A stretch of 46,399 nucleotides of DNA. It comes from Cyanophora paradoxa CCMP329. Lineage: Eukaryota; Plantae; Glaucophyta. Positions 1-46,399 of the stretch are shown here, one piece after another. The position numbers and the translations under genes are program-made. The stretch lies in NCBI GenBank assembly GCA_004431415.1, contig QPMI01000110.1, positions 1-46,399 of the forward strand. Direction: 5' to 3'. Position 1 is the stretch's first letter. The number at the start of each line of letters is the position of its first letter. The notes beneath the pieces are model-generated. The model did no database searches. It was not told the DNA's origin and saw nothing but the letters and a program-made list of their open reading frames with translations.

Positions 1-48
1 CGGCGCTTCGGAGGCATATATTGGACACGCGAAAAATTTACACGAGCT

Positions 49-868
49 TTACAGCGCGTCTCGTCGAGGGCCTCTACCGTCTTCGTAATGTACAGCGCAG
101 CAGATCCTTAAGGTTGCTCTGCGGCAGCAATTTTACGTCTACGTGCATCTGCCTGGCGGTTTCTCGCTTCCTGTAGCCCGTCTCCTCCGCCCCACTGCAT
201 GCCGAGGGCGTCCTTTCTCCGTATCGGCCGCACCGCCGTCTTCTGGTACTCCTCCCCGAACCAGTCGTCCTTGTAGAAATTCGGCAGGCCGCCCTGTCCC
301 TCCGTTTGCATGAACTTGATGAGGAAATCCGACGCCCGCTTGCCGTCGAATTGCACGCGCGAGTAGTGCACCAGCGTGAGCAGGATGTGCGCGTGGAGCC
401 GCCCCGACCGCGGCCCGTACTCGATGCCGATGTTCGCGTTACCCTTCTCCACGTGCGTGTCGTACTGGTCGGACTTGAAATCGAAGCCCTTGGGGTTCGC
501 CTTGTCGGGTACACCCCCATCTTATGCACCGCGCCAGCTGCCTGTCGTCGTAGAAGGGGCCTCCAGCCCCTGTGAAGGCGTCCTGCACCTTGGAGCCTTC
601 TCCCCTGCTCCGCGGCTTGTAGTTGGTCTGGATGGTGATCATGAAATTCGACTCGCGCTGGGCCGTCCTCTCCGTTCAGTTTCCTCACGGGCGCCGCGTC
701 CAGCACCTCTGGAACCACGTCTTGTCGGGCGCCAGCACCTTGTCGTTGATGTTGCCCACCACGATGTGAGTCTCTACCCGGGAGCGGCCGGAGGCGTCCA
801 TGGGAGGTGAGGGTTCGGTGCCGGGCTTGCCTGTTTGCTGCCACGCCCCTCGCGATGAGGTTGAGCAT
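49..868 (-). CDS. HUH-superfamily (rolling-circle Rep-like) endonuclease, frameshifted
   Basis: Joining minus-strand frames gives motif I-like SNFMITIQTN (~620-650), motif II EYGPRSGRLHAHILL (ORF 108..452) and motif III-like ALYITK (~81-98), in the canonical order. Exact ends uncertain. Confidence 0.75.
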
Positions 869-1096
869 GTCAGACCAAGGCCTAGAAAATTTTCCAGGCT
901 GGGGTGAGCTTCCACGTGGGCCCCGGGGTACGTCCGCACCTCACCTGAGCACCACCTGAGCCTCACATGAATCACCTGAGCAACGCCTTCTGTCACATCT
1001 GCGGCTCACCTGCGGCTGGGACCCACTCGATTGCGCGAAGCCCGTTTGCCACTTCTGCAAGGGAATAGCCCAGCTGCAGTACGAGGACTCGGAGGA

Positions 1097-1922
1097 ATGG
1101 CAGACTCTGGCGAAATCGATCTCCTCCTCCGAAACTTTGAGCAGATCCAGCGCTACGGAGCCATCCTTCACGACGAGGGGGACCCAGACTTCGACGCTCC
1201 GGCACCGTACCCCGCCGCCGCCGCCGCCATCGCCAACTCCTACCTCGGGGCCGGAGAGCGCCCCCGCAAGCGCAACCGCCGCACCCAAGGCCCCCAAGGC
1301 GAAGCCGCTGTCCCCTGCGGAAATTGCGGCTCTACCGCCCTCGTTGGTGTTCACCTGGATGGGGATCTGGTTTGCCAAAGCTGCGGTCTGGTCCTGGATC
1401 TTTATTATCCGGACCATCAACCCCTGGCTGTCAGCGAGCTCCACAGCAACTACCTGCGGAAGTACCACGTATCTGAGCGACTTAAGCAGCACTGCCTGGA
1501 GGATTCTCCGGTACCCGAGGACGTGCTGGCAGCTATTGCGAGGCGCATGGCGGGGAAGGAGTGGAGCAAAGACAATATCCGCCAAGTTCTCCGGGCTCTG
1601 AAGCAGCAGAAGTACATCGAGCGCTGGCGCAGATCAAGTGGCGCATCACGGGCGAGCGCCCGCCTCCGATGAGCGCGGAGGACATGGACCGGGTGCAGGA
1701 GATGTTCGCCTGGTGAGGTCCCCTTCAGCATGTTCAAGTCACAGGGCAGGAAGAACATGCTCAACTACAATTACGTATTCAGGCAGATTTTCGTGCTGCT
1801 AGATTTGCCCAGCACCTCCCCTTTTTCCCCTTGCTCAAGAGCAGGCAGAACTCTCGGAGTTAGATTCGATTTGGAACAGGATCTGCGAGTACAACGACTG
1901 GCATTTCTTTCCTACTCTTTAG
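1097..1922 (+). CDS. VLTF3-like viral late transcription factor with Zn ribbon, frameshifted
   Basis: Zn ribbon CGNC...VCQSCG, then YLRKYHVSERLKQ, LKQQKYIERW, GRKNMLNYNYVFRQIFVLL and FPLLKS..LDSIWNRICEYNDWHFFPTL*, which are typical VLTF3 C-terminal motifs. Confidence 0.88.
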
Positions 1923-2254
1923 TGATCGCGGCGGCCTTCCGCTCGAGCGCCTGCTTGATTCCGAAGCTAGCGCTGGTAGCCTTGATTAGCATGTTCGTCT
2001 GCCCGTGTGTGAATCCGAGGATGAACATAATTCCGCCGGTGGGTCGTCGTCGAAGAACTTGAGGTGAGCACGTACTTCGAGAGCAGGCCGAGGGAGAGGC
2101 CGTTGACGGCGACCTGCGCGGCGAGCTCGGCCGCGTGGCCCGCCCTGTTTTCGCCTTCGTGCGAGGAGAAGGCGGCGTCGATGAGGGAGCCGGATGCCAG
2201 GCCGAGGGCGTACTGCACGATAGCCTGGGAGAGCCCTAGGAGCACCTTTGACAT
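1912..2254 (-). CDS. Small hydrophobic, probably membrane/virion protein (frameshifted)
   Basis: ORF 1967..2254 continues in another frame as DPTGGIMFILGFTHGQTNMLIKA...KE*. Hydrophobic helices, upstream AAATTTCC motif. Confidence 0.55.
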
Positions 2255-2289
2255 TTTCCTAGCGCCTCGGAAATTTTTAAGGGGCGCGC

Positions 2290-2634
2290 CTAGGCGTCGG
2301 AGTCCTCGTCCTCGGTCTCTTCCTCCTCCGAGCTCGATTCCGAGGTTGCAAAGTCGTCCGGGTCGCGCACGTAAATAACCCTGTCTCCCTCTTCGTCTGT
2401 CATCTCTTCCGAGCTGGTGTCCTCGCTGCCCAGCGACTCGGCCGCGGCCTCGTCCGCCGCCTCCGACGTGAGGCGCTCCCAGTTAATTCCCAGCGCGTCG
2501 CAGATCCTCTCCAGGGCGCTGCTGACCTCGCCGTCGTTGAAGGGCGAGGAGGGGTCGAGGCTTGACTCCAGAAGGCAGTCGTAGACGATGGACTCGACGC
2601 GGAAGACGGAGGCGATGTGGGCGCTGGGCGACAT
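2290..2634 (-). CDS. Hypothetical protein with acidic C-terminus
   Basis: Clean ATG ORF that fills the gene gap, preceded by the ATTTTTTCTGA motif. Confidence 0.6.
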   Translation of the reverse strand: MSPSAHIASVFRVESIVYDCLLESSLDPSSPFNDGEVSSALERICDALGINWERLTSEAADEAAAESLGSEDTSSEEMTDEEGDRVIYVRDPDDFATSESSSEEEETEDEDSDA

Positions 2635-2660
2635 GCTTACGCACGAAGCCTCAGAAAAAA

Positions 2661-3728
2661 TCAGGCGAGGCCGCGGTGCTTCCTGAAATTATCTATCATG
2701 CCCAGGAGCGTCTTGTCCACCGTGCCGTCGTCCGGACCCACGAGATTTTCTCCGTTGACGGTTTCGCCCTCCCAGTACTCCTTGGATCCGATGCGGAAGG
2801 GGGGCGGCTCCTCGGCCTTGTAGACGTACAGAACGTCCAGAGGGTTCGTAGAGTTGTTGGAAGAATCGATGATAAGGCAGTGGTTATCCTGCGTGTACTT
2901 GTCGAGCAGGTAGTAGAAGGCGCGCTGGGATATGATGTCGCCCCACTCCTTTGCGAGGGCCTCGCGCTGCATCGCCTGCGAGCACTTGAAAATGACAGCC
3001 AGATCAGTATTGGAGCGCAGGACGGGATTGATGCCCTTGGCATACTGCGTCGTGATAAGGGTCATGATTTTGTAGTGGCGCCCCGCCACGAAGAGCTCGT
3101 TGAGGGCCTCGTCGTACCGCAGCCGAGCGTCGGAAATCACGTCGTCGAGCAGCACGAAAAATCGCGGGTCGACGGGATCCTCCTTTCCCGCGAGCACGTC
3201 TTCGGACTTGTTGTGCTGCATGATCGCCTGCTGCCTCCTGAATAAATGGAAGAGCACGCCCGGGTTGTACTTGGGCCAGATGAAGCGCTGGGGTATGTAC
3301 TGCTTCCAGTACCCGTTCAGGCGATCGGTCTGGCTGATCACGATACCCCCCGGGAAGGTGCCGGAGAGGTTGAACATGAGATCGCGGAGGAAGAAGGACT
3401 TGCCCGTGCGCCGCTTGCCGACGCAGACGACGGTGGCGTCGGACTTGACGGTGTTCACGTCGAACCACTTGAGCTCGGGCAGGCAGGCCATGCGCTCGAT
3501 GCCGCCCGTCTTCGAGTTGTCGAGGAAGGCGTTGACCTGCTCGGGCGTGAGCTGCTGGCCGTCCTCTGTCATGCCCATGGCGCAGCTGGCGCCGGCGGCG
3601 GGGGCGGTGCCCGAGCCCGATCCGGTGGCCTGGCCGGCGGGGGCGGGGGCCGGGGCCGCGCCGGCGGGCTGGGCGGCCTGGGGCTTGGCCGCCTTCGGCT
3701 TCTTCGGCTTCTTGGGGTCCTTGGCCAT
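2661..3728 (-). CDS. A32-like (FtsK/HerA superfamily) genome-packaging ATPase
   Basis: Walker A GKRRTGKS, Walker B FVLLDD, GRHYKI arginine motif, TTQY sensor. Likely start MAKDPKKPK at 3728. Confidence 0.93.
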   Translation of the reverse strand: MAKDPKKPKKPKAAKPQAAQPAGAAPAPAPAGQATGSGSGTAPAAGASCAMGMTEDGQQLTPEQVNAFLDNSKTGGIERMACLPELKWFDVNTVKSDATVVCVGKRRTGKSFFLRDLMFNLSGTFPGGIVISQTDRLNGYWKQYIPQRFIWPKYNPGVLFHLFRRQQAIMQHNKSEDVLAGKEDPVDPRFFVLLDDVISDARLRYDEALNELFVAGRHYKIMTLITTQYAKGINPVLRSNTDLAVIFKCSQAMQREALAKEWGDIISQRAFYYLLDKYTQDNHCLIIDSSNNSTNPLDVLYVYKAEEPPPFRIGSKEYWEGETVNGENLVGPDDGTVDKTLLGMIDNFRKHRGLA

Positions 3729-3765
3729 TTTACCCCCTTCATTCAGATTTTCTTGCGACCCTGGA

Positions 3766-4242
3766 ATGAAGATCCTCGGCGTGGATGTGGGGGTCATTAA
3801 TTTCGCCTGGTGCCTCATCGAATTCGATCCGCAGACAAAGGAATCCCAGATTCTCGACTGGCAGAAGATCGCCCTCTTCCCGTCTGCGCGCTGCTGTGGC
3901 CGCCTTGTGGCGCGCCTGGTGGAGGTTACTCGCGGCCATAGCGCCTTCGGCCTTCCCGACCAGATCGCGATCGAGGGCCAGAGGACGGGAATCAATCGCT
4001 GCATCGAGTGCACGCTCCACGCCCTCCTGTACGGGCGTGCGCGGATCGTGAGCCCGCGCGCCATCAAGCACTTCTTCAAGATCTCGAACCCGAGCTACAA
4101 GGAGCGCAAGCGGGGCGCGGTCGACAAGTGCCGCGACCTCGTACCCGCCGAGCTCGCCGACATCGCGGACCGAAACGGCAAGCTCGACGACCTCTGCGAC
4201 GCCTACCTGATCGCCCTCTACGCCGCCCTCAATCCGGTGTGA
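3766..4242 (+). CDS. RuvC-like Holliday junction resolvase (poxvirus A22-like)
   Basis: MKILGVDVGVINFAW, IAIEGQ, YKERKRGAV and KLDDLCDAYLIA give the catalytic D-E-D-D pattern. Confidence 0.9.
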   Translation: MKILGVDVGVINFAWCLIEFDPQTKESQILDWQKIALFPSARCCGRLVARLVEVTRGHSAFGLPDQIAIEGQRTGINRCIECTLHALLYGRARIVSPRAIKHFFKISNPSYKERKRGAVDKCRDLVPAELADIADRNGKLDDLCDAYLIALYAALNPV

Positions 4243-4272
4243 TTCCCGTTGCGATTTCTGGAGGACCCGCAG

Positions 4273-4434
4273 ATGGGATCCTCATGCCGTAAGCCGAGGC
4301 CCCTCTGCTGCGAAATCTGCCGCCTGCCCCAGACCAAGCGCGGCTGGGTGCTCAAGGCGGACGTCTACGTCTGCTGCCCCCGGTGCGCCGTCCGCTACTA
4401 CGCACTTTTTTCTGAAGGCTGTCTACACCCGTAG
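4273..4434 (+). CDS. Small Cys-rich zinc-finger protein
   Basis: CEIC...CPRC, with ATG preceded by ATTTCTG. Confidence 0.5.
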   Translation: MGSSCRKPRPLCCEICRLPQTKRGWVLKADVYVCCPRCAVRYYALFSEGCLHP

Positions 4435-4443
4435 CTAGATCCC

Positions 4444-4839
4444 ATGGAGCACGCCCACTACTGCTTCAAGTGCCGCTCCAACACCAAGCTCGCCAACGTC
4501 GAGGTGCGTACCAGCAAGAACAACCGCCAGGTGGCCGTCGGCTCCTGCACGCAATGCAGCGGCCGAGTCTCGCGCTTCATGCGCCGGGTTCAGGAGGAGG
4601 GGGCCCGGGAGACCAGCCCGCCGCCGCAGCGCCCGCAGGTGCCCGACGCCGCTGGCCCGGCCGCCGGCTCGAGCCAGGCACCGGCAGCCCCTACGGCCCC
4701 GAAGCCCCCCGCGGCGCCCCGGCAGAAGGCCAAGGCGGCCCCCGCGGAGGGCGACCCGAGCCCGCTCGAGGCCCAGCCCAAGCGCCAGCGCGCGCCGAGG
4801 AAGGCGGCGAGCGAGCCCGCGATTGCAATTCAGATGTGA
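4444..4839 (+). CDS. Zn-ribbon protein (DUF5679-like) with Pro/Ala/Lys-rich tail
   Basis: YCFKCR...SKNNR..AVGSCTQCSGRVSRFM pattern. Confidence 0.75.
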   Translation: MEHAHYCFKCRSNTKLANVEVRTSKNNRQVAVGSCTQCSGRVSRFMRRVQEEGARETSPPPQRPQVPDAAGPAAGSSQAPAAPTAPKPPAAPRQKAKAAPAEGDPSPLEAQPKRQRAPRKAASEPAIAIQM

Positions 4840-5084
4840 TTCGGCGGCGCAACTGCCCCTGCCACTGCTTCGTCTGCGACTACCCCCCCACCTGCTTCCC
4901 GGGCCACCTGCAGTTCGGCCACGAGATTTCGGTGGCGCGCGTGGGCGGGCGGGCCCGCCTCGTCTGCAGGCGCTGCGCGCGCGGGCTCTTCGCGGATTTT
5001 CGCAGGATCCGCGACAGGGAGCTCACGGGCAGTATTTCTAAGTCCCTCCCCAAATTGAGAAATGGCCTCCCTGCTGTTCGATAG
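4836..5084 (+). CDS. Small zinc-finger protein (start uncertain)
   Basis: CFVC...VCRRC in the 3' part of ORF 4470..5084. Confidence 0.45.
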   Translation: MIRRRNCPCHCFVCDYPPTCFPGHLQFGHEISVARVGGRARLVCRRCARGLFADFRRIRDRELTGSISKSLPKLRNGLPAVR

Positions 5085-5325
5085 GGACATGTACCAAATG
5101 CAGAACCGATTCGACGGCGTCTACCCCGAGCGCATGCCGCAGGAGCAGTTCCCGCGCCCGCACTGGGCGGACCACCGCACGCACGGCCTGCGCAGGCCCG
5201 GGGCGGGGCAGCTGATGGTGACGCCCGGGGGCGCGCCGGCGGAGCGCGACTGGTCGCCCCTCTGGATTATAGCGGGGATCCTGGTGGGGTACCTCCTCTT
5301 CCGACCCAGTGTAATTTCTCAGTGA
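5062..5325 (+). CDS. Small protein with C-terminal transmembrane helix
   Basis: LWIIAGILVGYLLF, with upstream ATTTCTAAG motif. Confidence 0.65.
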   Translation: MASLLFDRDMYQMQNRFDGVYPERMPQEQFPRPHWADHRTHGLRRPGAGQLMVTPGGAPAERDWSPLWIIAGILVGYLLFRPSVISQ

Positions 5326-5337
5326 CCCCGTACCCCG

Positions 5338-5676
5338 ATGTCTCGATCTATCCCTTATTGGGCCCCAATCGATACGCAAATTGAGATGCTGCGCGCTCGC
5401 ATGCAGAAGCTTACGCTCGAAGAGGATCCCACGGATGTACCCGAGATCAAGGCGGGGTTGGCCACGCTGCCGACGGATATCGTCGAGAACATTCGCGATT
5501 GGGTGTACAGACTGCAGGACGAGGTCCGTGCACGGCTCTGGCAAATCGTGATGGGGCAGAGGGCCGCGGCCTACCGTAGCTTCGACGACCAGAGGGACGC
5601 GGCCATGCGCAGGTGGGAGAGGCAGTTCCCCGAGACGTACGGGGGTGCCAACCCATATTTTTCTGGTGATGGGTAA
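5338..5676 (+). CDS. Hypothetical helical protein
   Basis: Clean ORF in a co-oriented array, with the upstream motif. Confidence 0.65.
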   Translation: MSRSIPYWAPIDTQIEMLRARMQKLTLEEDPTDVPEIKAGLATLPTDIVENIRDWVYRLQDEVRARLWQIVMGQRAAAYRSFDDQRDAAMRRWERQFPETYGGANPYFSGDG

Positions 5677-5678
5677 AC

Positions 5679-5957
5679 ATGCCGGAGGCACAAAAGAAGC
5701 CCGCGAAAAAGGCGCCCACGAACGGGCAGGAGCGGCCCACCAAGGCCGAGGTGAAGGAGGCGAAGGAGAAGCTGAAGGGGCCGCCCGAATTTCCTAAGGG
5801 GCCGAAGCCGCTGTACGAGGACGTCTCGCCCGGCGAAATATTCGTGGCGATGCGCCCGACGAAGCAGGGGAAGAAGGGGGCCGATAAGAAGGACGGGAAG
5901 GAAGACAAGGCCAAGACCGATAAAATTTCAAAGCCAGCCCCTAAGAAGAGCAAATGA
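5679..5957 (+). CDS. Lys-rich basic protein (possible DNA-condensing/core protein)
   Basis: Very high K content, upstream motif, ATGA overlap with the next gene. Confidence 0.6.
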   Translation: MPEAQKKPAKKAPTNGQERPTKAEVKEAKEKLKGPPEFPKGPKPLYEDVSPGEIFVAMRPTKQGKKGADKKDGKEDKAKTDKISKPAPKKSK

Positions 5958-7852
5958 GGGGGCTCGCCTCGCGTTTCGCGCCGCGCAACGTGCTGGCGGT
6001 CCCGGGGGGCGGGGACTCGCACATCACGCCCTTTGAGAGCGACAAGTACGCGCACTTTCAGCAGATGGCCAAAACCGCGCTGCACCGCTCCGACGGGATG
6101 CGCGTCGAGGATAGGGCGAAAACCGACAAGCTCGCAGAGGTGGAGGCGCAGGCCATCGCCAACGCCTACTACATCAACAAATTCAAGGAGATGGAGTCCG
6201 GGCTGGACGAGGAGTACGAGGAGGGCTTCCGCTCCTGGCTGATGGGCCAGTCCGCCTTTGCCATCGACGCCGTGACTCAAACGAACCGAAAGGCGCGGGG
6301 CGCGGGCGCGTGCGACGTGGACGGTAAGAATTTGACCATGCTCCCAGGCGTGCGCGATTTTTGCAAGTCGAAGGAAGACCAGATCACAGAGTTCTTGAAA
6401 CGCAAAAAGCGACTCGAGACCCTCGGGCCCATGAACTTGGATGACGCGTACTACTACTACAAGTACATCGTGAACGGCGAGGAGTTCAAACCGACGAGCA
6501 TTTATGCGCGCGAAAACCTACCGGAGGAGAAGAAGAGCTACGCGGATAGGAACACCTCGCAGCCGTTCACCCAGGCCGAGCCACCCGGATCGGACGACGA
6601 GGGCCCGGGCCCCGACGAGGGCCGGCTGAGGGACACGCGCGCCGAGATGCGGCGCCTGACGGCCGCGATGACCAAGCTCGTTACGATCGCCGAGAGCAAG
6701 GAGCAGGAGGCGCGGATCAGAAAGAGGGACAACGCGGCCATCGATGAAAACGGGGCCATCGCTCTGAGGCCGAATGCGCGGAGGGGCGCCAAGGAGGCGC
6801 TGATCCAGAAGGCGCTGCCGGGTAGGCGCGAACGGCCCGCAGAAGGCGACGGGGGCGGTGGCGGTGGCGGCGGGGGCGGTGGCGGCGGGGGCGGTGGCGG
6901 CGGGGGCGGTGGCGGCGGGGGCGGTGGCGGCGAACCACAGCCGCCGCCCCCTCCTAGTGCCCCTTCAACCCCGGCTCCATCGCCCGAAGCTTCCCCTCCG
7001 GCCGCCCCGGGCACATCCGTGGGAGCGCCCGCGGCCGGTCCTTCCGATGCCGAGATGGCGACGGTAGAGGCCGCGGTGAGGGGGGCGCTGGCTGCCGTGG
7101 GCGTTCCGACTGCGCCGCCGGCGACGTACGCCGCATCGTCCGCGAAGCCGAAAGACCGCAAGTTGAAGAAGGGCTTAGACGCGGACGAATCCCGGGAGGC
7201 GCGGCTGGGGTCGCTGGATGCGCTGCGTAACGCAAAAGGGGCGGCTCTCCTCGCCAAGGCGCGCAGACAGCTGATCACCGACGTGGCGGCCGATGCGGCC
7301 CCCGAAAGCGAGCTCGCGACCGTTTCGGAGTTCATCCAGACGGAGCGGCTGCAGGCGGACGTGATGGAGGCAGAGGCGACGCTTGAGGTACGTAAACGGG
7401 CACTCGAGGAGGCGGCCGAGCGCACACGCAGGCGCCGGTGGGACATTGGCCCCACGGGAGAGGTGATGCCGGCACCCGCCGCAGGGCCCAGTGCGCCCCC
7501 CAGCGTGCCCCCTCCCGCCCGCAAACAGCGATGGGACGTCGGCCCCGATGCAGCTCAGATTTCGGCGTTTCTCGCGGGCAACCCTGACGCGGAGGAGCGG
7601 CGCAGGTGGTTTGAGGATCAAAAGAGCGCGAAGATCCAGGGTGCCTACAGCAAGGCGCTCAAAGACATACAGAGGCGCTTCGGAAACAATGACGAGACCC
7701 TCGGGAGCTTCGCGGAAATTGCGATTTCCCGGTACCACACGGCCAAGGGCGTGCCCGGGCAGATTATTGCCAACGTGCCTGCGCAGCTGCTACGAGATTA
7801 TTTCTCGGGGGACGGACCCGACATCGATTTTTGGAGGTTTGTGGACGCATAG
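5954..7852 (+). CDS. Large hypothetical protein: globular N-domain, poly-Gly/Pro linker, two RWD motifs
   Basis: 632-aa intact ORF directly upstream of MCP, containing RRRRWDIGP and RKQRWDVGP. Confidence 0.75.
   Translation: MRGLASRFAPRNVLAVPGGGDSHITPFESDKYAHFQQMAKTALHRSDGMRVEDRAKTDKLAEVEAQAIANAYYINKFKEMESGLDEEYEEGFRSWLMGQSAFAIDAVTQTNRKARGAGACDVDGKNLTMLPGVRDFCKSKEDQITEFLKRKKRLETLGPMNLDDAYYYYKYIVNGEEFKPTSIYARENLPEEKKSYADRNTSQPFTQAEPPGSDDEGPGPDEGRLRDTRAEMRRLTAAMTKLVTIAESKEQEARIRKRDNAAIDENGAIALRPNARRGAKEALIQKALPGRRERPAEGDGGGGGGGGGGGGGGGGGGGGGGGGGGGEPQPPPPPSAPSTPAPSPEASPPAAPGTSVGAPAAGPSDAEMATVEAAVRGALAAVGVPTAPPATYAASSAKPKDRKLKKGLDADESREARLGSLDALRNAKGAALLAKARRQLITDVAADAAPESELATVSEFIQTERLQADVMEAEATLEVRKRALEEAAERTRRRRWDIGPTGEVMPAPAAGPSAPPSVPPPARKQRWDVGPDAAQISAFLAGNPDAEERRRWFEDQKSAKIQGAYSKALKDIQRRFGNNDETLGSFAEIAISRYHTAKGVPGQIIANVPAQLLRDYFSGDGPDIDFWRFVDA
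6851..6931 (+). repeat. GGC/GGT/GGG poly-glycine coding repeat
   Basis: (GGGGGCGGTGGCGGC)n-type 15-bp periodic run. Confidence 0.9.
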
Positions 7853-7863
7853 GCGCCCATCCA

Positions 7864-7876
7864 CAAAATTTTCTCA
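7864..7876 (+). promoter_or_regulatory. Representative copy of the ATTTTC(T) upstream motif (before MCP)
   Basis: The motif recurs about 10-40 nt upstream of more than 25 start codons on the coding strand. Confidence 0.75.
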
Positions 7877-7891
7877 ACGCACCCCTAAACC

Positions 7892-9260
7892 ATGGCTTCC
7901 GCGCTCATCTCCACCCCCTCGACCGCCCTGCACCACTCGCTGCGCAGCTCCGACGCGTCGGTGCACGTGCACGAGACCTTCGACACGGCGATGCCGTTCG
8001 TGGACGAGGTGCTCGAGGTGAGCCCCGTGCAGTCGGGCGTGAGCTTCAGCCAGACCGTCGACATCGTCATCCCGCACTCGGCGCCGATGTTCAACGACTC
8101 CTGGCTCAAGGTGACGCTGCCGGCGCTGACGAACGCGGACCACTTCTACATCCCGAAGGCCGGCTACGTGCTGCTCAAGAAGGTGAAGATCTTCGTGGGC
8201 GCGCAGCTGATCCACGAGTACGACGGCCATTACGACGCCATCTACGGCGAGTTCGAGGACGACAAGTCCGTCGTCCAGCACGTCGACATGGTGAACAACC
8301 TCTGGGCGCACCAGCCGCTGCGCCGCCGGGGCAAGGCCCCGAACACGCTGTACATACCGATTCGCATCGCGACGGGCCACGGTCGAAAGTTCGCCGTGCC
8401 GCTCCACAAGCTCCGCTGCTCCGGAAACGACATGAAGCTGCAGATCACGTACGCCTCGCAGAAGGAGGTGACGGCCTCCTTCGTGGACGGCGGCCTGCAC
8501 ACCAACACCAACCTGACGAGCACCGTCAGCCTGGACACCAAGCTCATCCTGCGCTACGTGCACATCGACTCGCGCGAGCTGGCGCTGCACCCGAACTCGT
8601 TCACGTGGGCCGGCAAGTACGTGCAGCACTACCACGTCTCGTTCGAGTCCGGCAAGGCCATCCGCCTGCCCTTCACCGGAATCTGCTACGAGCTGATCAT
8701 CGTGGTGCGCGACAAGCCGCACACCGACAACGGCGAGCACTTCTGGCGCTTCCGCCCGCTCGACAAGATCGAGCTGAAGTGCGACAACATCAAGGTGCTC
8801 GATAGCTCGAACCACGACGCGCACTTCTTGCGCACGGCCATCGCGCACAAGGAGCACACGCACGCCCCGCCCGCAAGCACCTCGAGCTGCTGCGGGCGTG
8901 ACCTCGATGGACGGGACGGCGGCGGCCGACGTGGCCGACGCGCTGCACCCGCACCCGTGGTCGGGCAACGACACGGCCCCCACGACCCTCGCGACCCACG
9001 ACGGGCACAGCAGCGACATCCAGCCCCGCAACGTGGGCCAGTTCGGGACGGAGTTCATCTACTCGCTCCCCTTCGGCACGGACGTGGCCGACAACACCAA
9101 GATGTTCGGCGGCCTCGACATGGGCGCCTTCAAGACCATCGAGCTCACGCTCACCACGCTCAAGACCTACGGCGCGGACAAGCCCGTGGCCGACATCTAC
9201 TGCCGCTACTACAACGAGATCACCTTCACCAACGGCGGCGCCTACCGCCGCTTCCATTAG
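7892..9260 (+). CDS. Major capsid protein (double jelly-roll, NCLDV-like), one frameshift near 8880-8900
   Basis: Beta-rich ~455 aa. Contains WLKVTLPAL, GYVLLKKVKIFVGAQLIHEYDG, LYIPI, LPFTGICYELIIVVR, FIYSLPFG, GGLDMG and YYNEITFTNGG, matching the NCLDV MCP layout. Confidence 0.88.
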
Positions 9261-9339
9261 ATTGCTTGTTAGCCAGGGTGTGCTTGGTAGGCCGATGTGA
9301 ACCAATAAATTTTCCCACTGGGATCCTAACCGAGGCACG

Positions 9340-10464: not shown

Positions 10465-10486
10465 TTTCTGAGGCCCACGCGAGCAC

Positions 10487-17429: not shown

Positions 17430-17430
17430 C

Positions 17431-35609: not shown

Positions 35610-35973
35610 ATGGCCCTGCTCAAGTGCACCGACTCCCGCGACCTGCCCTACAACGTCCTGGTCAACTCGGACGTGCCCGGAGTGCGATGGAGTTTCCCTG
35701 GCGACTGGACAGGGGCAGGGTGACCAAGACCTTCGGGAGGCGCAAGCACTACCTCTCCCAGCTCATCCTCGGAAGCCGCCACGTGGACTGTACGTGGAGC
35801 ACATCAACGGCAACCCGCTGGACTACAGGAGGGAGAACCTGCGCTGGGTATCGATGTCGGAGATCCAGAAGAAGAGGAGGGAGGGTACGAGCCTGCAGCA
35901 GAAGAGCGAGGAGATTGCGGAGATGATGGAGGCAGCGCAGGCGCTGGTGCAGCTCAGCCAGTCTAGACGCTAG
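35610..35973 (+). CDS. HNH endonuclease (frameshifted)
   Basis: YVEHINGNPLDYRRENLRWV, with upstream ACATTTTCTGAG. Confidence 0.75.
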
Positions 35974-37439: not shown

Positions 37440-37477
37440 TTACCCGGGGCAGATATTTTTTCGGATCGTAGAGGAAA

Positions 37478-39558
37478 ATGCCCCGCTTTGTATTCGTGAA
37501 GAAACAGGTGGTGCAGGCTCCGCAGTACGGCGTGGAGCCGATCTCGCTCACTGTGGGCAGGCCCCAGGTGCGATCGGGCTCCGTGCTCAACAACGGGGCG
37601 GTACCTACGGATTTCGACTGAACTGGGGTGCTGTCACCAACGCCGTCAAGTACAAGGTGTACAGGGCGACGAGCCTCAATGGCACCTGGACGCTGGTGAA
37701 CACTGTGAACGCCCCCACGCTCACGTACACGGACACGCCCTTTAATTTTGGCGAGCTACGTCTCTACCGGGTGGCCGCGGTTCGCGAGCAGGGCAGCAGC
37801 AGCACGGGCTCCGATGGCAAAGCCCCACCCACAACCTACGCACAGTCGCTTCTCTACACGCACGAGGGCACTACAAGCAATTACATTCTCTTCCAAGGCC
37901 TGAGCGGCTTCAACCCTCAGATCGAGGCGTACACCACGCTCACAACCGCCACGGCCCAGACCTACGGCGATTTTATTGCCGGGGGCGGCCCCGCGTCTTC
38001 CGGCTTCCCGAAACCCGCCATCGTCGTCACAATCAATTGGGTGGCCATGGAGGGCGCGGACTCGATTCGAATTTACAGAGACGGCACCCCTATCGGATTC
38101 GCAAGCAGCGCCCTAGCTACCTCGTACATCGACGATAGCACTGCCCTTGCGTGGGGTACGGAGTACTCCTACCAGGTGGCCGGCATCGTGGGCGGGGTCG
38201 AATACGAAAAGTCCGATCCGCTCCCGGTCTGGACGACGCCGAACGCGCCCACGAACGTGACGACGACTGCGCCCGACGACATAGAGCAGCCCGTCAGCCT
38301 CAGCTGGACGGCGCCAACGGGGGCGACGGGGTACAAGATCTACAGGGACGGGGCCTACCTCGCAGACTCCGCGACCAACTCCTATAGCGACGCGACCACG
38401 ATCTGGGGTACGGGGTACGAGTACCAGGTCTCCGCGACGAACTCGGGAGGGGAGGGACCGAAGAGCATTGTGGCGTATGTCACCACGGATCCGGCGGCGC
38501 CCACGGAGCTCACCGCGACTCCGACGGCGGGGGCCGCCCAGCCAGTGGTGCTTGCCTGGTCGGCGCCGGCGACGGGCGTCACCGTCTCCTACAACATTTA
38601 CAGGGACGGCGTCTTTCTCGCGAACGACGTCAGCAGCCCTATTCGGACGCGACGACCGCGTTCGGGACGACCGCGTTCGGGACGACCTACACTTACACCG
38701 TCAAGGGCGTTAACCAGATTGGCGAGGAGGGCCTGCCTCCAGCAGTGCCTTTGCGACGACAATTGACAGTTTTATGGACAGCGCCACCATTTCAACGGCC
38801 ACCAAGAATGCACTGGTGGCCGCATACTCAACCCGAAGGGTTCGGCCCTCTTATGTCGGACCCACGCTCCGTCTGCGTCGCAGCGATGGAATTACCGCCG
38901 ATTGGTACGCTGACTATTCAGGCGTCTTGAATTCTGCGTACGATCGGTCTGGAACAAGTTACACGACTTGGGTGACGGGGTACACGGCAACTGTTCAGAC
39001 AATGTACGATCAGACGGGGGGTGGGAGGCACGCGACCCAGGATACAGCATCTTTGCAACCTCGCTATACGAGTGGCCGGGTGACATTCGATGTCGGCAGC
39101 TCCCATTATCTGCAAGTTCCCTACTCTGCAGCCCTCAATACCTCGACGTACTCGGTACTTTGCTCCTGCCTTTTCACCGCTACGACAACAGGAACTTATT
39201 GGACCCCTGTAGCATCCCGCGGCATGTTCACGGGCTACTCGTTGTACAGGAACAATGGCGTGTTTCTGTCCTACACGGGCAATGGCTCTGCGTGGACTGA
39301 TTTCGGAACGAGTGCAGCGAATGCAGGTACGCAGTATAAGATTGCCGTAGGGTACAATGGCACGACACACTCCATTCGCGTGGGCTCAACCGTAGAAACA
39401 AGGACAGCCGGCTACGCTCCAAACACGCAGTATCCCCTGCGCATTGGAGCGGGTGTCACCGAGTCATCCCCGCGCACCTCTGGAACGGCTGGGTCGACGA
39501 TGTGCTCTTCTTTAACACGTTTATTACGGACGCCAGTGCCGTTCACGCGCTCATGTAA
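37478..39558 (+). CDS. Surface/fibre protein: several FN3 repeats plus C-terminal LamG/concanavalin-like domain (frameshifted)
   Basis: LSWTAPTGATGYKIYRDG...YEYQVSATNSGGEG repeats, then AAYSTRRVRPSYVGPTLRLRR, then PLRIGAG...WNGWVDDVLFF. Confidence 0.8.
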
Positions 39559-39616
39559 AATCTTATGTGGAAGAACAACAATCAGGGTATTATTGTATTT
39601 GTGCGGTAATCGCTCA

Positions 39617-40819
39617 TCAGACAACCTTCACGATAATTAGCGCCTGCGTATCTGAAACGACTCGAATGATTCTACCGACGGCGACCCTGTACTGGTCGAA
39701 GGATGGGGCGGCCACGGCCTGGGCGGCGATTGCTCCGTTGGGTCCTGGGGTGGGTACCACGTAATCTCCCGGGCCCCCACCGCTGACGTTCACGGGGACC
39801 TGTCCACAGAATGCAATCCGATCGACCAGCTGCCGATTCGCCTCTGCCGCTGACTCCCAGGCGGCGCGGGCGGCTTCGTAGGTTGCGAGGGCGGTGGGGT
39901 CGTCCGTTTCCGGCTTCAGGGGGGCCATTCCAAGGGACTGGCCCCAGGTATCGCCCCCTACGAAGGATGGGTTGGTGCTCTTCACCACGAACGTGACGGC
40001 CTCCGTAAATTGATTGGTTAGGAGTCCTGAGCCGTTCACCCCACAGATATCGCCCTTGTTGAAGGCAAAGTCGTTGGATTTCTTTAGCATGTACTCTGCG
40101 TAATCGCTTCCTGCGGTGTTGACCGTGCCCCCGGCTGCGATGGAGCGACCTGTCGTAGACCCGAGGGCAGCAACAAAGAAAGGGCAGGCCGCTGTATCGT
40201 TCCATAAGGTCACGGTGGCTTGATCGGCCACTTTGTAGTTTTTCACGCCCATGTAGTGTCGGTTGTCGAAATCCCACCACAGGCTTGCCCATTGTCCGCT
40301 TCCGACGTCTTTGCTTTTAACGTTCAAGACGGAAGTTGCGATGGATGTCGGCGCACCGATAGTTGCATTGGACAGATTAGCGGTTCCGGTTATGTTAGGG
40401 GAGTTGAGCTCCGAGACTGCGTTGACGACGCCGGTAACCGTCGCAGCCCCGTTGACTCTCAATCCCCCGACCACGTTAGCGCCCCCTCCCTGCACGTACA
40501 AGGCCGCATTCGCCTCCCCATCTGCGTTGTTGAACGTCAGGGCGTTTGTGGTGTGACCACTCCCGTCCCAGGAGCCGTTCGTGACGGTGAGCCTCTGCGT
40601 CTTCACGCGCCCCGGCACGGCCGATCCGCCCTCCCGCGTGCGCATCTTATCGCAGCGCAGCTCGCCGACTCGCACGAGATCGGCCTCGGAGAAGGGGACG
40701 GCCGTGGCGTTGTAGGGGGTCTCGGTGGCCTGGTCCCCGAGGGTGGTCTCCTTAATCGTGTGATCGCCCTTGTGATTCACGCTGGCAGCGTAGGTGAATA
40801 GAGGGACGGCGACAGACAT
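39617..40819 (-). CDS. Fibre/spike protein with C-terminal phage-type autoproteolytic/chaperone-like (Peptidase G2-like) domain
   Basis: GSDYAEYM, STNPSFVGGD, RIAFCGQVPVNV and PGDYVVP, after a beta-helix-like G/N/T-rich N-part. Confidence 0.7.
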   Translation of the reverse strand: MSVAVPLFTYAASVNHKGDHTIKETTLGDQATETPYNATAVPFSEADLVRVGELRCDKMRTREGGSAVPGRVKTQRLTVTNGSWDGSGHTTNALTFNNADGEANAALYVQGGGANVVGGLRVNGAATVTGVVNAVSELNSPNITGTANLSNATIGAPTSIATSVLNVKSKDVGSGQWASLWWDFDNRHYMGVKNYKVADQATVTLWNDTAACPFFVAALGSTTGRSIAAGGTVNTAGSDYAEYMLKKSNDFAFNKGDICGVNGSGLLTNQFTEAVTFVVKSTNPSFVGGDTWGQSLGMAPLKPETDDPTALATYEAARAAWESAAEANRQLVDRIAFCGQVPVNVSGGGPGDYVVPTPGPNGAIAAQAVAAPSFDQYRVAVGRIIRVVSDTQALIIVKVV

Positions 40820-40843
40820 TTTTGGATTGCATCAGAAAATCGA

Positions 40844-43800
40844 TTACATAAGCAGCTTGCCGATCGCGGTCCAGTGAATGAAAAGCTGGACAATTTGGGT
40901 GGGTGTGACCGTCATTCTGGGCTGGAATCTCACTTTAACTGTAAAGCCAGTATGACTCACCGCCGTGACGTTGGTCCCGTAGAAATCGACATCCGTGCTG
41001 CCGCCAGGATTGATGTCGAACGAGGGGGTTACGTTAATAACCGGCGTCGGGTTTGCTGGGGTCCCCAATCCGCCTCCAGTGTCGTACGCCTGTCCGAATG
41101 TAATGTTGAACGTCACCGTGTATGTTGAATTGATGTTAAACTCCGTGTACGCAGCGTACGAGTGGAAGGACGTGCCGTGCGTTATGTACGCATCCATGTT
41201 CACGTTTCTGTGCCCGTGGCCGGTGAGCGAGTACTCTGCGTGACTGTGCGTAGAGGGGGGGAAGGTGAGAGGCTTCCCCGTAACTTGAGTTTCCCAGTCC
41301 ACGTTGTGGCTGTGAGTCGAGGGGGGGAAGGTGGCTGGCCTGCCCGTAACTTGGGTTTCCCAGTCCACGGTGATGTTCGACAAGTCGGGGGCCGTCCAGT
41401 CGCTGATTTCGGAGAGGGTGTGCCTGTGACTGGCGTGGGGGTATGTACTCGGCTTCCCCGTGATGCTATCCCACGCCCACGTCGTTGGCTTTCCGCTCAG
41501 ATCCGCATAAGCACCCGTGTGCGCCACCGTCGCCAGCCAGGGCTGCACGACGCCAACGGTGCTGACGGGCTGGTTGACGGGGTACTCGAGCAGCGATGCG
41601 TTCACTTCCGTTGGCTTCCCCTTCAGATCCGCGTACTCGCCGTATGGGCCACGGCCGCCAGCTGGGGCTGCACGACGCCCACGGTGCTGATGGCCTGGCT
41701 GGGCCCGAGGGCACGTGCCACTCGTAGTTCTGCGCCGCAAACACGGGCTGGCCGGGCGAGGGTGCCCAGTACTCGACGCCTTGGCCACCTCTTTCCTGTA
41801 CGGCGCCGCCGGCCTGTCCATCAATTTATCGACGTACGCCTTGGGTACCAGCCAGTTGGCCTTGGGACTCTGCGAATTAATCCGTTGTCTATGAAGGCCC
41901 CGTAATTCCTGAAGCCTCGGCCTCCCACCAATCCTGCATGCGGAAGGTACCCGGAATCTCGAGGCGCGAGTTGGCGTCGGCCAGGCGGGCCACCTGCGCC
42001 CTCCGTTCGACGAGACGCCGAGTGTCGGATGGCCGAGCCGAATTCGCGCCTTAGGGCCTCGATGTGATTGATCCTGTTGAGGCCTCCTGGTAGACGGCAA
42101 TTAACACGCGCTTCCTGTTCTTGGCCTCCGCCGTCACCATTTCCTTCAGATCCAGCATCACCTGCTTTAGGCCGATGTTCAGGGCCAGCAGCCCATCTGC
42201 ATTGTTTCCGTGAGCTGCGATAGGTAAAGCACCGTCGCGCGATCGATTTCGAGCAGAGTCTTCTGGTCCTTGGGGTACGGTAATCGTTGATTGCGTTGTC
42301 AAGCGCGTGGATGAACTTCTGCAGGCTTTCGGGCTGCTTTTGGTTTCCCGCATCCATCTTCAGCATTTCGATCTCCATGATGAGTCTCATTGCCCCGTTG
42401 TCGCCGCCCCTTCCGGTGAAAACGCCCATGGGGTTGTCGCCTAACTCACCCTCGATTCGCCGAATTCGCATCCTCAGTTGCTCGGCCTCGGAGCCAAAGG
42501 TCTCGATGCCCCACTCGACCATGTCCTGTGCGATCTTACCAATGAACTGAATCGTATCGGCCGCCCAGTTGATGGGGTACATAAAAAAGTTTTTGATGAT
42601 GGTACCCACGTCCCTCTTGTTCAGGATGTCCACGAAGACGCCGGCGATCATTCCTGCGAGAATCGACAGGCCCATGCCACCCACGAACCCGATTTTCATT
42701 CCGGGCTTCAGGAATTGGAGACGGAGGTGAGCCCCTGCTGAATGCCAAACGAGCCCACGGTCATGATCATGCTGTCGCGGAAGTTGTCCATGAACTGCGC
42801 TTGCGTGATCTGTCCGCTCTCCAGGGCTTGGTACGACGAGAAGCAGCCCGCCAGCGCCGTCAGCCGAGGCGGCCGCCCCGCCCCAGTCGTCTGCCGAACT
42901 CGAGCCCGTACCCCGAGCCCGGCGCCCACCAGGTCGATGCCCGCCCTGAAAGAGGTCGGCCATGCGAAGGGCATGCCGTCGTTGTTCGCCGTACCGCCGC
43001 CGAGAAGAGGGTCTCTGCGCTGAGGGCTCCTTTGCCACCCCGGCCGCCTTGCCCTCGGGCGCCCCAGGTAGGCGTCGCGCTGCTCTTTGGTGGTGAATCG
43101 CTCGAGGTCGAAATCGGCAAGGGCGTCGGCGGTGGCGCGTTCCAGTCGCCGTAGGCATGAGGCGTGCGCAGAATAACGTCCGAGTCGCCCATCACGCGCC
43201 TGTCGAGCGTCTGGAATACGCCCTCGGAGGGCAGGCGAGCTGTGCCCGGGCGCATTTCCTCCACGGAAACGTCGTCCCTCTCCGCGAGCGTGATATCGTC
43301 CGGGCTGGCCGAGCCCACGCCGCGCCCTCGTCGGCGTAGGCCCTTCCTCCTTTTTAACAGTTGATTGGCCTCCCGTTTCAATGCTTGGTACTCTGTCTCT
43401 ACCTTGGTCTTCTTGCCTCTTCCTCTGCCGCCTTGCGCTCTGCGATCTTCCGCCTCTGCTCTTCTATCTCGGCGTTGCGTCTCGCCGCGTCTCCTTGGCT
43501 TGCTGCTTCGCTCTTCGATCACCCTGTTTGCGTACTCCTTGTCCGCTTGGGCCTTTCTGTAGCGCTCCTCGATCTGACTCTTGGCCTCGTCTCCTCTCTT
43601 CTTAGATCGCCTATGAACGCCGTTGTATCTATGTAAAGCTTGTATTTGGCGGTGATGCTCACGTTTAAAGGCCTCCAGATCGCGCACCATGGCGTCGTAC
43701 TGTGCAAGCCCCTCGCTGGAATGACGGCTCTTCGCTTTTCCCAAAACTTGCTCAGCTCTCCACGTAATTGATCATGCCGACGTACGCGCTCTGTGCGCCG

Positions 43801-46120
43801 ATGCTCACCGTTTTCGGATTGGCTCGCAGCTCTGCCACAAACTTTCCCTTTTGCATCCGGTACAGTGACCATTCCAGGCTCCCCGCCATAGGCTCACTTC
43901 CGTCCGCAGTTCGCGGTGCATCTCCTCCACGTCGCCGTATGCTATCCAGATGGCATCGCTGATGGCCTCTGAACAGCCTGACGCTCAAAGTTTTTCCACT
44001 TCTCATCGGCCATCTTTCTCCTCAGTTCTTCGGCGTCTTTCTGACCCTTCCGTCAGCTGATCCATAACGTAGCTAAAGTCGCGCATGTTCTCTTCCATGG
44101 CGCGGACCCTGTCCCCTGATGCTTTTCCATCTGCGAGTTTTTTGAGCTCCGAGCGGTAAAAATCCATCTGCGCCCCCCTGAACGTCTCCATCGTCGCTTA
44201 CGCTCCGCTACCTTCGGCTCCTCCAGCCGTGCAAATTCCTCGTCTGATGCAGTTTGCATTGCCTTCAGTCGTTCCTTTCTGTCTTGGCAGCTGCCTCCTC
44301 GTCCGCCCTGCGCGCTGCTCTAACGCGTCGAAGAGGGCCCTCTGATCCTCGAGCGTGAGGCCAATGAGCTCTTCCACCTGGTCGCTCCTACCCAGCCGCG
44401 CGAAGGCAGCCTCTCGGCGGCCGGCCTCGGATCGGGCCTCGGCGTCGTCTGCGTCTCGCCGTCCCATGGCGAGCGTGCTCTGCGGTGGCCGCGTACTTGA
44501 GCAGCCTCTGTGCCAGCCCGTCCGCGTTGGCCTTGAATTTTTTCGACTGCTGGTCGCGCGCTCGGCGGCCTCCTTTAAATTTTTGATTTCCTCCCGGAGC
44601 CTGTTCGCCTCCTGCACCGCCCCCGTTTGCAGCTCTCCTGCCTTTCTCCTCGTTTCTCTTCCTCTTCCAGCAGCTGCCTTCTCGTTTCTGCCTCCTTTTC
44701 CAATTTCTTCTTCCTATCCTCGATCTCTTTCCTCTGCGCCTCAAGCAGCTCGGTGCCTGCGGTCAGCGCTTCAATTTCCTGCAGCTTTTTCGCCTTGCGG
44801 CTTCCCTTTGCTCGTTATCTCTTCAGCTCCTCCTCGGCATCGAGTATCATTTTTGTGCGCTCTTCCGCGACCTGGCGCTCTGCCGACCTTAGCGCCGTGA
44901 GGCGCTCTCTTCTTCCTTTGCGCGTCTGTCATCAGCTTGTTCGCTTCCGCCTTCTTCTCCGCGACCTCTGTCATTTCCTTGTCTTTCAGCTCGCTCCATT
45001 GCTTCTTTTCGTTCTCGAGTTTGTAGTACTCGCGCTGCGCGTCCTCGGTATCGAATTTAATGGGGGGTCTCGCGTTCAGCTCGTCGATTTGCCTCACGAA
45101 CCCCTTCCGATCCTTGTAGTATTGATGCCGCCTACGATGAGGCGCCCCCGAAGATGGCCGTTGAAGTGGCGAGGCTGCTACCTTATCCATGCCCTCCCCG
45201 CCTGAGCCGCCGCCACCCGAGCCGCTGCTGCCCCGCCCCCGCCCACTGGCGTGCCGCTGGAGCCCCCTCCGCCCCCGTGCCTGTACCCCCACCCCGTGCC
45301 TGTACCCCCACCCCGGTGCCTGTACCCCCACCCCCGTGCCTGTACCCCCACCTCCCGGCTTCCACCACCGTACCCCCACCCGGAATCGCACCCGGCACCT
45401 TGGGCCGCCGATGATGTCGTCGTACAGGTGGCGGTGCGCCCAGTCCGTGATGTCGCCTTCACGTGCGGGTGCTTGACGAGGCGTACCTCTCGTCGTGGAA
45501 GTGGTCCTTCAGCGCCCAGTTCTGCGTCTTCGCCAGTCCGAGCGATCGGGGAGCACGTCGGGCGCCGTCGGGATGCGGCCCCCGCCGTCGTCTCCGGCGT
45601 CTCGCCCGTCCTGTCGGCGCTCAGGGCGCGGATGTTGACTTGAAGTGGTCGAACCACGCGAAAAACTCCTCCCTGTCGCGCCTGTACTGCTCGGGCTCCA
45701 TGCTCGGCAGCGCCTGTCGGCTCCAGTAGATGTGGCGCAATGGGCCGCGATGCGCTCGAGGGCGTTGTACCCGGCTCACGTCCCCTCTGCGCCCTTTAGA
45801 GTCAGTTTTACGAGGTTGAGGGTGGCATCCTTTGCGGTGACGGAGTTTGCGATTTTCACGTCGGCCGCCCTCTTAATAATGTTCCAGTCCACGCCCGTCT
45901 CGGTCGTGACCCCCAGAGCCCTTGATAATTGCGGTGAGGTCCCGTAGTCGCCAGCGAGCCTATGGTCGTCAGGAAATCGTTGTACGTGGATCCCTCCGCA
46001 GCCGAATCTCGTCCGCGTAAATTCCCCTCACGCTCAGGCTCCGTCTATCGCGAAGGCGCCGTTCAGCACCTCGTCGGGATTCGGGATGGCCATGCGCCAG
46101 GGGTCTGCAAGCATCGACAT
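40844..46120 (-). CDS. Very large (~1700 aa if single) coiled-coil protein ending in phage tail-fibre repeats and an H-lectin/gp53-like tip; heavily frameshifted, may be two genes
   Basis: ATG 46120 follows TTTTTCTC. Long E/K/R coiled-coil segments, hydrophobic helices near 42600-42750, WETQVTGKP.TFPPSTHSH repeats, and terminal GFTVK...FIHWTAIGK. Confidence 0.5.
45274..45352. repeat. Four ~18-bp tandem units (CCCGTGCCTGTACCCCCA), coding GGGTGT-like linker on the minus strand
   Basis: Seen directly. Confidence 0.85.
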
Positions 46121-46146
46121 TTCTGTTCGCGAGAGAGAAAAATTAA

Positions 46147-46399
46147 CTAGCGCTTCCGCTCCCAGGTCCACTTCAGCTTGCCGCTCACCTCGCCCGTCGT
46201 CCACTGGCCCGCGGCACCTGCCAGAAAACGTCGGCGTAGGGGTAATCGGGCCTGACAACGATCTGCTCGTCGGCAGCCAGCGGTAGGCCTCGGAGGCGTC
46301 GCGTATTTTTCGGCTCCCAGTATTCCCCGCCCGTGCCGTTCGCAGCGAGTACCCCTCCCTTGCTACCCGTACCCTGTAGAAGTGCTCGCCCGTGAGCGT
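46147..46399 (-). CDS. 3' part of a small gene entering from the right edge
   Basis: ...IVVRPDYPYADVFWQ...GKLKWTWERKR* ends just before the next gene's motif. Confidence 0.4.

Follow-up and report, generated by a model that had tools for sequence, protein, structure and literature searches.

A mriyavirus-related genome from a virus family probably resident in the glaucophyte Cyanophora paradoxa

Contig QPMI01000110.1 of Cyanophora paradoxa CCMP329 was analysed over its entire 46,399 nt; this whole stretch is termed the window. The window is the near-whole genome of a mriyavirus-related virus, which belongs to a large, young family resident in this glaucophyte. The family appears to reside integrated in the nuclear genome of the alga, with the window as one copy of at least 41 kb and with members on at least 35 contigs. 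A rough probability of 0.74 is given to this reading.

A previous reading of the DNA letters (termed the sequence-only reading) listed a major capsid protein (MCP), an A32 ATPase, VLTF3, RuvC, a single-stranded DNA (ssDNA)-binding protein (ssb), an HUH endonuclease, a superfamily 2 (SF2) helicase and a YqaJ exonuclease. This gene set is confirmed by Pfam, searched with all 252 stop-to-stop segments of 90 aa or more in the window, together with hidden Markov models (HMMs) made from gamadvirus loci (E-values computed over window segments only). NCBIfam was also scanned with 53 segments and PHROGs with 50. The Pfam matches are Capsid_N, Pox_A32, Pox_A22, Pox_VLTF3 (weak), Herpes_ori_bp, YqaJ, HNH_3, fn3, DUF5767 and DUF5679. 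None of the 252 segments matches polB, RNA polymerase, integrase, recombinase or reverse transcriptase in Pfam, in agreement with the earlier claim that DNA polymerase, RNA polymerase and integrase are missing. There is no match to tRNA, tmRNA or Rfam families in the window. The principal viral genes are listed below; the family names follow from a comparison of gene order with Yutin Table S1.

75-868, minus strand: HUH endonuclease (gamadvirus HUH HMM, E 4e-15), split by small indels in the assembly
1097-1915, plus strand: VLTF3 late transcription factor (gamadvirus HMM, E 1e-21), split by one-base gaps
2661-3728, minus strand: A32 packaging ATPase, intact (Pox_A32, E 1e-4; gamadvirus HMM, E 6e-101; Walker A intact)
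3766-4242, plus strand: RuvC/A22 Holliday junction resolvase, intact (Pox_A22, E 7e-7; gamadvirus HMM, E 2e-15)
5954-7852, plus strand: Mriya_1 homologue (E 2e-8)
7892-9260, plus strand: double jelly-roll MCP (Capsid_N, E 1e-7)
9340-10464, plus strand: Mriya_51 homologue (E 2e-9)
10487-10816, plus strand: PEV_20 homologue, weak (E 1.5e-4); its position ahead of Mriya_48 agrees
10845-11645, plus strand: Mriya_48 (DUF5767), putative envelope protein (E 2e-25)
11680-12478, minus strand: ssb, ssDNA-binding protein (E 4e-15), homologue of the gamadvirus gene adjoining the ATPase (PEV_26 by gene order)
25373-28483, plus strand: UL9-like SF2 helicase (Herpes_ori_bp, E 2e-4), split by small indels
29253-29890, minus strand: PDDEXK/YqaJ-like nuclease (YqaJ, E 2e-14; gamadvirus HMM, E 3e-33)

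Copies in the alga and probable residence in its nucleus

Thirteen of 14 MCP matches are EukProt models, with 41%-100% identity, as are eight of the best 10 ATPase matches; the models looked up carry the accession EP00741_Cyanophora_paradoxa. Among C. paradoxa contigs the MCP is present on at least 31, the ATPase on at least 21, both on at least 17 and one or the other on at least 35, these counts being lower bounds that cover some clusters only. The expectation that assembly data could identify the host is thus borne out, by identical and paralogous proteins on at least 35 contigs of one alga. In addition, all 20 sequencing runs that contain the stretch at 7.8-17.8 kb of the window carry one coded organism label; they come from 11 studies (2012-2024).

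The sequence-only reading also proposed that the host of a new lineage could be found. The host link holds, but its novelty is lower, and at class level it is not new: a preprint already mentions, in two sentences and a figure of its accessible text, that a Glaucocystophyceae assembly has embedded Mriyaviricetes-related regions, for which it proposes an accidental insertion (bioRxiv 10.1101/2025.04.19.649669). Methylated giant-virus-like regions have been described in C. paradoxa, with mriyaviruses not named in the text accessible (PMC12344493). One MCP model of the family sits on tig00000342, which is the contig name given for a host orthologue of DNA polymerase A (10.1101/674762). Another contig name, tig00020936, is shared by an MCP and ATPase of this family and by an MCP of the polinton-like virus (PLV) type in the list of Bellas et al.; one kind of element may lie there beside the other or inside it.

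The family contains several capsid types. Of 17 full-length MCP models, 13 display 86%-100% identity to P0001, two display 62%-63% and two 55%. Four contigs carry a divergent MCP and, five gene numbers from it, an ATPase that is 91%-99% identical to the common type. The presence of three capsid types on a near-identical ATPase backbone suggests an exchange of capsid genes among resident copies. This comparison draws on the EukProt models P0006, P0007, P0152 and P0153.

The window carries a long terminal repeat (LTR) element and a cellular gene fragment, listed here with the repeat arms and one skipped segment:

14755-17429: non-autonomous LTR element (343-bp LTRs at 14755-15097 and 17087-17429, TG...CA ends, CCGG target duplication)
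14376-14526 and 17431-17559: inverted repeat arms that host the LTR insertion (related copies near 13560-13660 and 17660-17770)
18470-18542, plus strand: GT-AG segment of 73 nt, left out of a single contig from one run
31854-32741, minus strand: captured kinesin-3 gene fragment with five exons and four GT-AG introns (59, ~107, 65 and 81 nt), frame kept throughout

The LTR insertion, noted in the sequence-only reading, is confirmed by its boundaries, by the CCGG duplication and by a paralogous empty site at 17681. The two LTRs differ at 2 of 343 sites; as judged from these sequence features the insert is genuine and young. The element shows no match to gag or pol and encodes no recognisable protein. 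In one contig the end of the LTR element continues into a flank that is absent from the window, which implies a further insertion elsewhere. Short CTTGG-containing units also form inverted repeats that flank small regions at 13560-13660, 14376-14526, 17431-17770 and 35087-35577.

Contigs of four runs were placed on window positions 1-19,990, and the read evidence covers this span only. The RNA label of the runs is a guess, and depth was used neither for gene ranking nor for copy counts. The LTR interior has GT-AG introns at 16022-16071, 16131-16185 and 16323-16433; among the 15 of 58 joint rows shown, these joints are present in runs X1 and X17 and absent in X10 and X14, and they may come from another locus that shares the sequence. 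The LTR interior at 15966-16700 matches deeply covered spliced contigs that diverge at ~15965 and 16668. This part may include a fragment captured from another transcribed locus.

In its correct frame, the kinesin fragment alone gives no Pfam or PDB match and was identified via homologues only. Six metagenome contigs encode these homologues, and KIF1B and Kinesin_assoc domains are found in all four tested. A 27-aa gap in the alignments corresponds to the 81-nt intron in five of six loci; the sixth alignment ends earlier. In size the four introns are in keeping with the mean of 86 bp for the species (PMC6704402). From its sequence, the fragment appears to be eukaryotic genomic DNA, likely of the host, captured with its introns.

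The sequence-only reading took spliceosomal introns as a sign of a nuclear copy. Introns are real in the LTR interior, in the kinesin fragment and at one cryptic site, but none are seen in the MCP and ATPase in the run contigs; introns in these two genes are rejected, and those present belong to the passengers. Removal of the 73-nt segment at 18470-18542 would delete the start codon of the open reading frame (ORF) at 18512-18796, and it is thus likely cryptic splicing of a viral transcript; as a sign of a spliced viral transcript it is weak. Because the window carries both an LTR element with its target duplication and a piece of a cellular gene with introns, the virus likely lived in the nucleus of the alga, and the claim of nuclear residence is upheld to this degree.

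A nuclear location does not by itself fix the form of the copies. They might be mainly nuclear episomes or concatemers of a chronic culture infection, with some copies integrated and the window a cut permuted molecule. The window starts at a minus-strand gene start, and its other end falls within a long gene on the same strand, consistent with a gapped permuted circle; in addition there is no integrase in the 252 segments, the genes look intact in short reads, and an LTR element could also insert in an episome. However, the window ends have no terminal overlap, many distinct variants coexist, embedded copies have been reported, and one MCP shares its contig name with a host gene. An episomal state is therefore improbable, and residence in the chromosomes is preferred.

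Extent and integrity of the copy

Both ends of the window cut viral genes, and the copy is thus incomplete; the two ends are listed here with an internal duplication:

1-17, minus strand: beginning of an ORF that continues past the left end and is preceded by a shared T-rich motif
41824-46399, minus strand: long unannotated coding region that enters from past the right end (no family match in Pfam, NCBIfam or PHROGs)
21570-24046 and 24047-26527: tandem 2.48-kb duplication comprising unknown 1.3-kb DNA and the 5′ part of the helicase gene

At the left end an ORF is severed just past its start codon, and the T-rich motif upstream of it indicates that the cut lies within viral sequence; the right end lies inside the long coding region. 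The motif is found ahead of 20 of 24 ORF starts, compared with 10.7% of random windows, for a pattern picked post hoc. The long right-hand gene was considered as HUH_long and rejected, the HUH_long family matching the single HUH gene only.

After subtraction of the LTR element and one duplicate copy the net length is 41,243 bp, in accordance with the ~41 kb of the sequence-only reading; as both ends are cut, the true length is greater by some amount. That reading called the element near-complete. The gene set is near-whole, but completeness is unproven with both ends cutting through genes.

Decay is not the preferred reading of those breaks in viral genes that were checked. The 12 indels listed, out of a set with 77 more, are all bases missing from the window; 10 are of a single base, and each is present in three or four of the four runs. 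One short-read contig spans the MCP with no substitutions and two small gaps. The copies of the tandem duplication differ by one substitution and 12 one-base homopolymer indels; the duplication is either very recent or an assembly artefact. Because missing-base indels recur across runs and the copies differ at homopolymers, the checked frameshifts appear to be assembly errors, and frameshifts as proof of decay are rejected. For endogenous PLVs, Bellas et al. likewise describe seeming stop codons that turned out to be errors of assembly (PMC10120064). It should be noted that the short-read contigs merge many copies, and therefore show intact family members rather than an intact window copy.

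The window could also be a dead relic, i.e. one or a few old insertions of a non-replicating virus that were silenced and multiplied passively by segmental duplication. The LTR insertion, the host fragment and the tandem duplication are typical of erosion, one ATPase model of the family has an altered Walker A, and viral-origin genes are enriched among methylated C. paradoxa genes (PMC12344493). Against these stand the MCP frames, which are open across types of 55%-63% identity, and the apparent capsid swaps, which point to selection on virions, as well as LTRs that differ at only 2 of 343 sites and the best-supported indels, where the window lacks bases present in 3-4 of 4 runs. A relic is thus decidedly improbable compared with a young resident family. 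Features in keeping with recent activity of the family are the 13 MCP models at 86%-100% identity, the short-read contigs that cover the MCP free of substitutions, and the T-rich motif ahead of most ORF starts.

The remaining features of the window are the following:

1967-2254, minus strand: small hydrophobic ORF that weakly (E 0.005) resembles an unnamed gamadvirus family
4444-4839, plus strand: DUF5679 protein (Pfam)
28587-29268: 50-bp AT-centred DNA hairpin, present inverted at 28587 and four times in an 89-bp tandem array
35609-35970, plus strand: HNH endonuclease (HNH_3, Pfam)
37357-41821, both strands: likely virion fibre module, with an fn3 repeat protein (plus) and tail-fibre-like proteins (minus)

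The tail-fibre-like matches at 37-42 kb come from the PHROGs and NCBIfam scans. By eye, several short ORFs at 30047-31432 and 33170-33641 have a similar motif at the N terminus, as members of a paralogous family would; they have no family match. A stretch of 1.3 kb at 21570-22750 has no recognisable gene and several minus-strand CAG acceptor-like sites, and is possibly another captured host fragment. It lies upstream of an unannotated frameshifted gene at 20380-21700.

Affinity of the viral genes

Eighty IMG/VR loci were gathered with the ATPase alignment; six match named gamadvirus contigs of Yutin et al. and two are of the type found in nucleocytoplasmic large DNA viruses (NCLDV). The ATPase match list also includes a cluster with the Pleurochrysis endemic virus 2 ATPase. 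In a careful tree of 18 rows (mixture model, five NCLDV rows), the window and two metagenomic proteins, P0016 and P0021, form a clade (99/100), which sides with gamadviruses against the NCLDV rows (100/100). Gamadviruses without the window clade form one group in 21% of bootstrap trees under the mixture model, and the window clade may thus be nested within gamadviruses or sister to them; the LG+G4 tree places the window clade as sister to gamadviruses (98). The P0016 ATPase (ENA, 3.35-kb contig) is 90% identical to that of the window and P0021 (Logan, 8.2-kb contig) 80%; these two are possible free-living or other-host relatives of the lineage. Gamadvirus-type ATPase contigs are found in bacterial metagenome-assembled genomes of GTDB (five loci), where they are probably mis-binned; two are in the table of Yutin.

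An MCP profile search of 1.84 billion representatives gave 106 matches. The first seven are EukProt models of the same family, the next has a value of 7.5e-12, and past the alga's own models the matches are mostly NCLDV-like MCPs. The gamadvirus MCP profile barely recognises the protein (E 0.008). In trees the MCP is outside the gamadvirus clade (support 97 and 100, two trees) and outside the NCLDV-like clade (99). MCP and ATPase phylogenies were among the checks proposed with the sequence-only reading; in the trees built here, neither protein falls inside the sampled NCLDV-like clades, a placement that would have refuted that reading. The proposed structure prediction gave an MCP model of pLDDT 80, which compares with PBCV-1 at Z 37.2 (root-mean-square deviation 2.7, 359 aligned), with Sputnik at 21.3 and with mavirus at 20.5. 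Its overall range is Z 29-37 for NCLDV MCPs and 20-21 for virophage MCPs, and a BFVD comparison agrees; the model, made from an alignment in which NCLDV-like MCPs predominate, resembles NCLDV MCPs far more than virophage ones. A first alignment of 16 close sequences gave a model of pLDDT 36, which was unused, and this alignment has no PDB sequence match. Viral contigs scanned with the MCP or the ATPase as single proteins gave no match. The MCP is NCLDV-like in fold and is without a close relative outside C. paradoxa.

The other genes show partial synteny with gamadviruses: VLTF3 is convergent with the ATPase, as in gamadviruses, and the order Mriya_51 - PEV_20 - Mriya_48 is the same. In Pfam, VLTF3 displays a TFIIB-type zinc ribbon and the weak Pox_VLTF3 match (E 0.009). 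The HUH protein has an invariant H-A-H in motif II, and YxxK of motif III is present in the adjacent frame. Ten proteins are specific to gamadviruses (HUH_long, PEV_8, 12, 14, 15, 20, 22, 26, 27 and 34/35). Among these the window has a strong ssb match, a weak PEV_20 match and one marginal match, ORF 18512 (E 0.003); the others were undetected. The helicase is further matched by CyRepA1 (E 5e-11, NCBIfam), and its first Atlas match (0.94) is a Herpes_ori_bp cluster. Its N-terminal piece has no Pfam match at E up to 5, and an AEP domain, hinted at by sequence motifs, was not confirmed. The best E for the superfamily 3 (SF3) family HMM, i.e. for an SF3_hel2 helicase, is only 0.97 in the window. 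Among the genomes of Yutin et al., SF2 helicases are confined to some Yaraviridae, and SF2 and SF3 are mutually exclusive; VLTF2 is absent from many Yaraviridae (PMC11253617).

The mriyavirus affinity claimed at the outset therefore holds, through the gamadvirus HMM matches and the ATPase grouping. The window is a distinct mriyavirus-related lineage, set apart from Gamadviridae by its helicase class and by the position of its MCP. The least probable alternative is that the window is part of a larger NCLDV or belongs to one of the PLV-like groups adjacent to mriyaviruses (Zora, VC134, VC218). In its favour, those groups also encode Mriya48 and sometimes HUH (10.64898/2026.06.19.733378), the MCP profile finds mostly NCLDV-like MCPs past the alga's own, and Sarre et al. 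term the C. paradoxa viral regions giant endogenous viral elements (PMC12344493). Against it, VLTF3, RuvC, Mriya_1, Mriya_51 and ssb match gamadvirus families, the window has no integrase while ~60% of those groups have one (10.64898/2026.06.19.733378), the ATPase groups with gamadviruses (100/100), and the MCP is outside the NCLDV-like clade (99).

Several points weigh against an integrated mriyavirus family. A host-virus junction is absent from the window, where both ends are viral, and the merging of copies in contigs leaves the intactness of the window copy unproven. In the HMM search of this incomplete window Mriya_50 has a best E of 1.1 and the presumed VLTF2 family no match; HUH_long and a minor capsid protein were not detected in the window, and minor capsid candidates are without a match. 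The MCP branch is very long and its trees are quick ones, the trees contain no Yaraviridae, PLV or Zora-group sequences, and the composition of the MCP alignment biases the fold comparison. The origin, nicking and integration steps of the life cycle given below are inferred.

Possible life cycle and known systems

Replication by host polymerases, HUH rolling circle, RuvC resolution and A32 packaging has been modelled for mriyaviruses (Yutin et al., PMC11253617). A similar cycle may be proposed here. The virus would replicate in the nucleus with host DNA and RNA polymerases, after nicking by HUH at a hairpin origin. The candidate for this origin, from sequence analysis, is the set of 50-bp AT-centred hairpins near the helicase gene, which has a further copy at 25233 just upstream of it; the best copy folds at z -6.2, a stability that none of 200 shuffles reaches, and three more have z -2.4 to -4.0. 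We assume here an analogy with UL9-bound herpesvirus origins. Rolling-circle synthesis would be powered by the UL9-like helicase and ssb, with RuvC as the resolvase for concatemers and the A32 ATPase as the enzyme that packs DNA into the double jelly-roll capsid. Our best guess for chromosomal entry without an integrase is HUH strand transfer or recombination aided by the YqaJ-like nuclease. Recombination between co-resident copies is likely and would account for the three capsid types on one ATPase backbone.

An active, integrase-less provirus family, forming a third Mriyaviricetes lineage with HUH rolling-circle spread, capsid swapping, carriage of host DNA and induction of particles, is a tentative and rather doubtful proposal. 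If true, the closest small relatives of giant viruses could be studied in the laboratory with this alga. Mriyaviruses are proposed to be the closest living relatives of the giant-virus ancestor, are mostly metagenomic, and have a rolling circle that is only predicted (PMC11253617). Axenic growth and methylome data are available for C. paradoxa (PMC12344493). With a large young family in an axenically growing alga, HUH nicking, integrase-less chromosome entry and reactivation of silenced copies are testable.

A gene-level description, anatomy, family size or capsid swapping of this family was not found in the literature searches made, and the accessible supplements of Yutin (PMC11253617) have no Cyanophora or glaucophyte entry. 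The embedded glaucophyte regions of 10.1101/2025.04.19.649669 are of the same viral class and host class and are probably the very family of the window; the accessible text is silent on species, copy number, gene content, LTR insert and host-gene capture. Retrotransposon-invaded endogenous PLVs likewise have retroelements inside endogenous viruses, but they differ in having integrases and PLV-type MCPs (PMC10120064); that study counts 366 C. paradoxa MCP hits, and six in its Table S2 look unrelated to the window family by eye.

Endogenous gamadvirus- and yaravirus-like elements in Phaeocystis genomes (10.1101/2022.07.28.501842; PMC12480563) are also small NCLDV-like elements (25-54 kb) in algal assemblies. 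Unlike the present family, with its three capsid types on at least 35 contigs, they are reported singly in each genome, and in haptophytes. The subset of Yaraviridae with SF2_hel (PMC11253617) shares the UL9-like SF2 helicase, HUH and, to judge by the net length of the cut copy, perhaps the 35-45 kb size class, a likeness drawn from published descriptions; the window has in addition ssb and PEV_20, which are listed as gamadvirus-specific.

The Gamadviridae (Pleurochrysis endemic viruses, Phaglo-G; PMC11253617) have an ATPase that is ~50% identical to that of the window and groups with it. They share HUH, VLTF3, RuvC, PDDEXK, Mriya_1, Mriya_48, Mriya_51, ssb and PEV_20, the Mriya_51-PEV_20-Mriya_48 order, the convergent ATPase/VLTF3 pair, and the lack of polymerases and integrase. 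They differ in the SF3_hel2 helicase (SF2 in the window), in a haptophyte rather than a glaucophyte host, in an MCP clade that excludes the MCP of the window, and in having VLTF2, Mriya_50, minor capsid and HUH_long genes, undetected in the window. This mixed gene set, together with the isolated MCP, bears on how the Mriyaviricetes should be divided.

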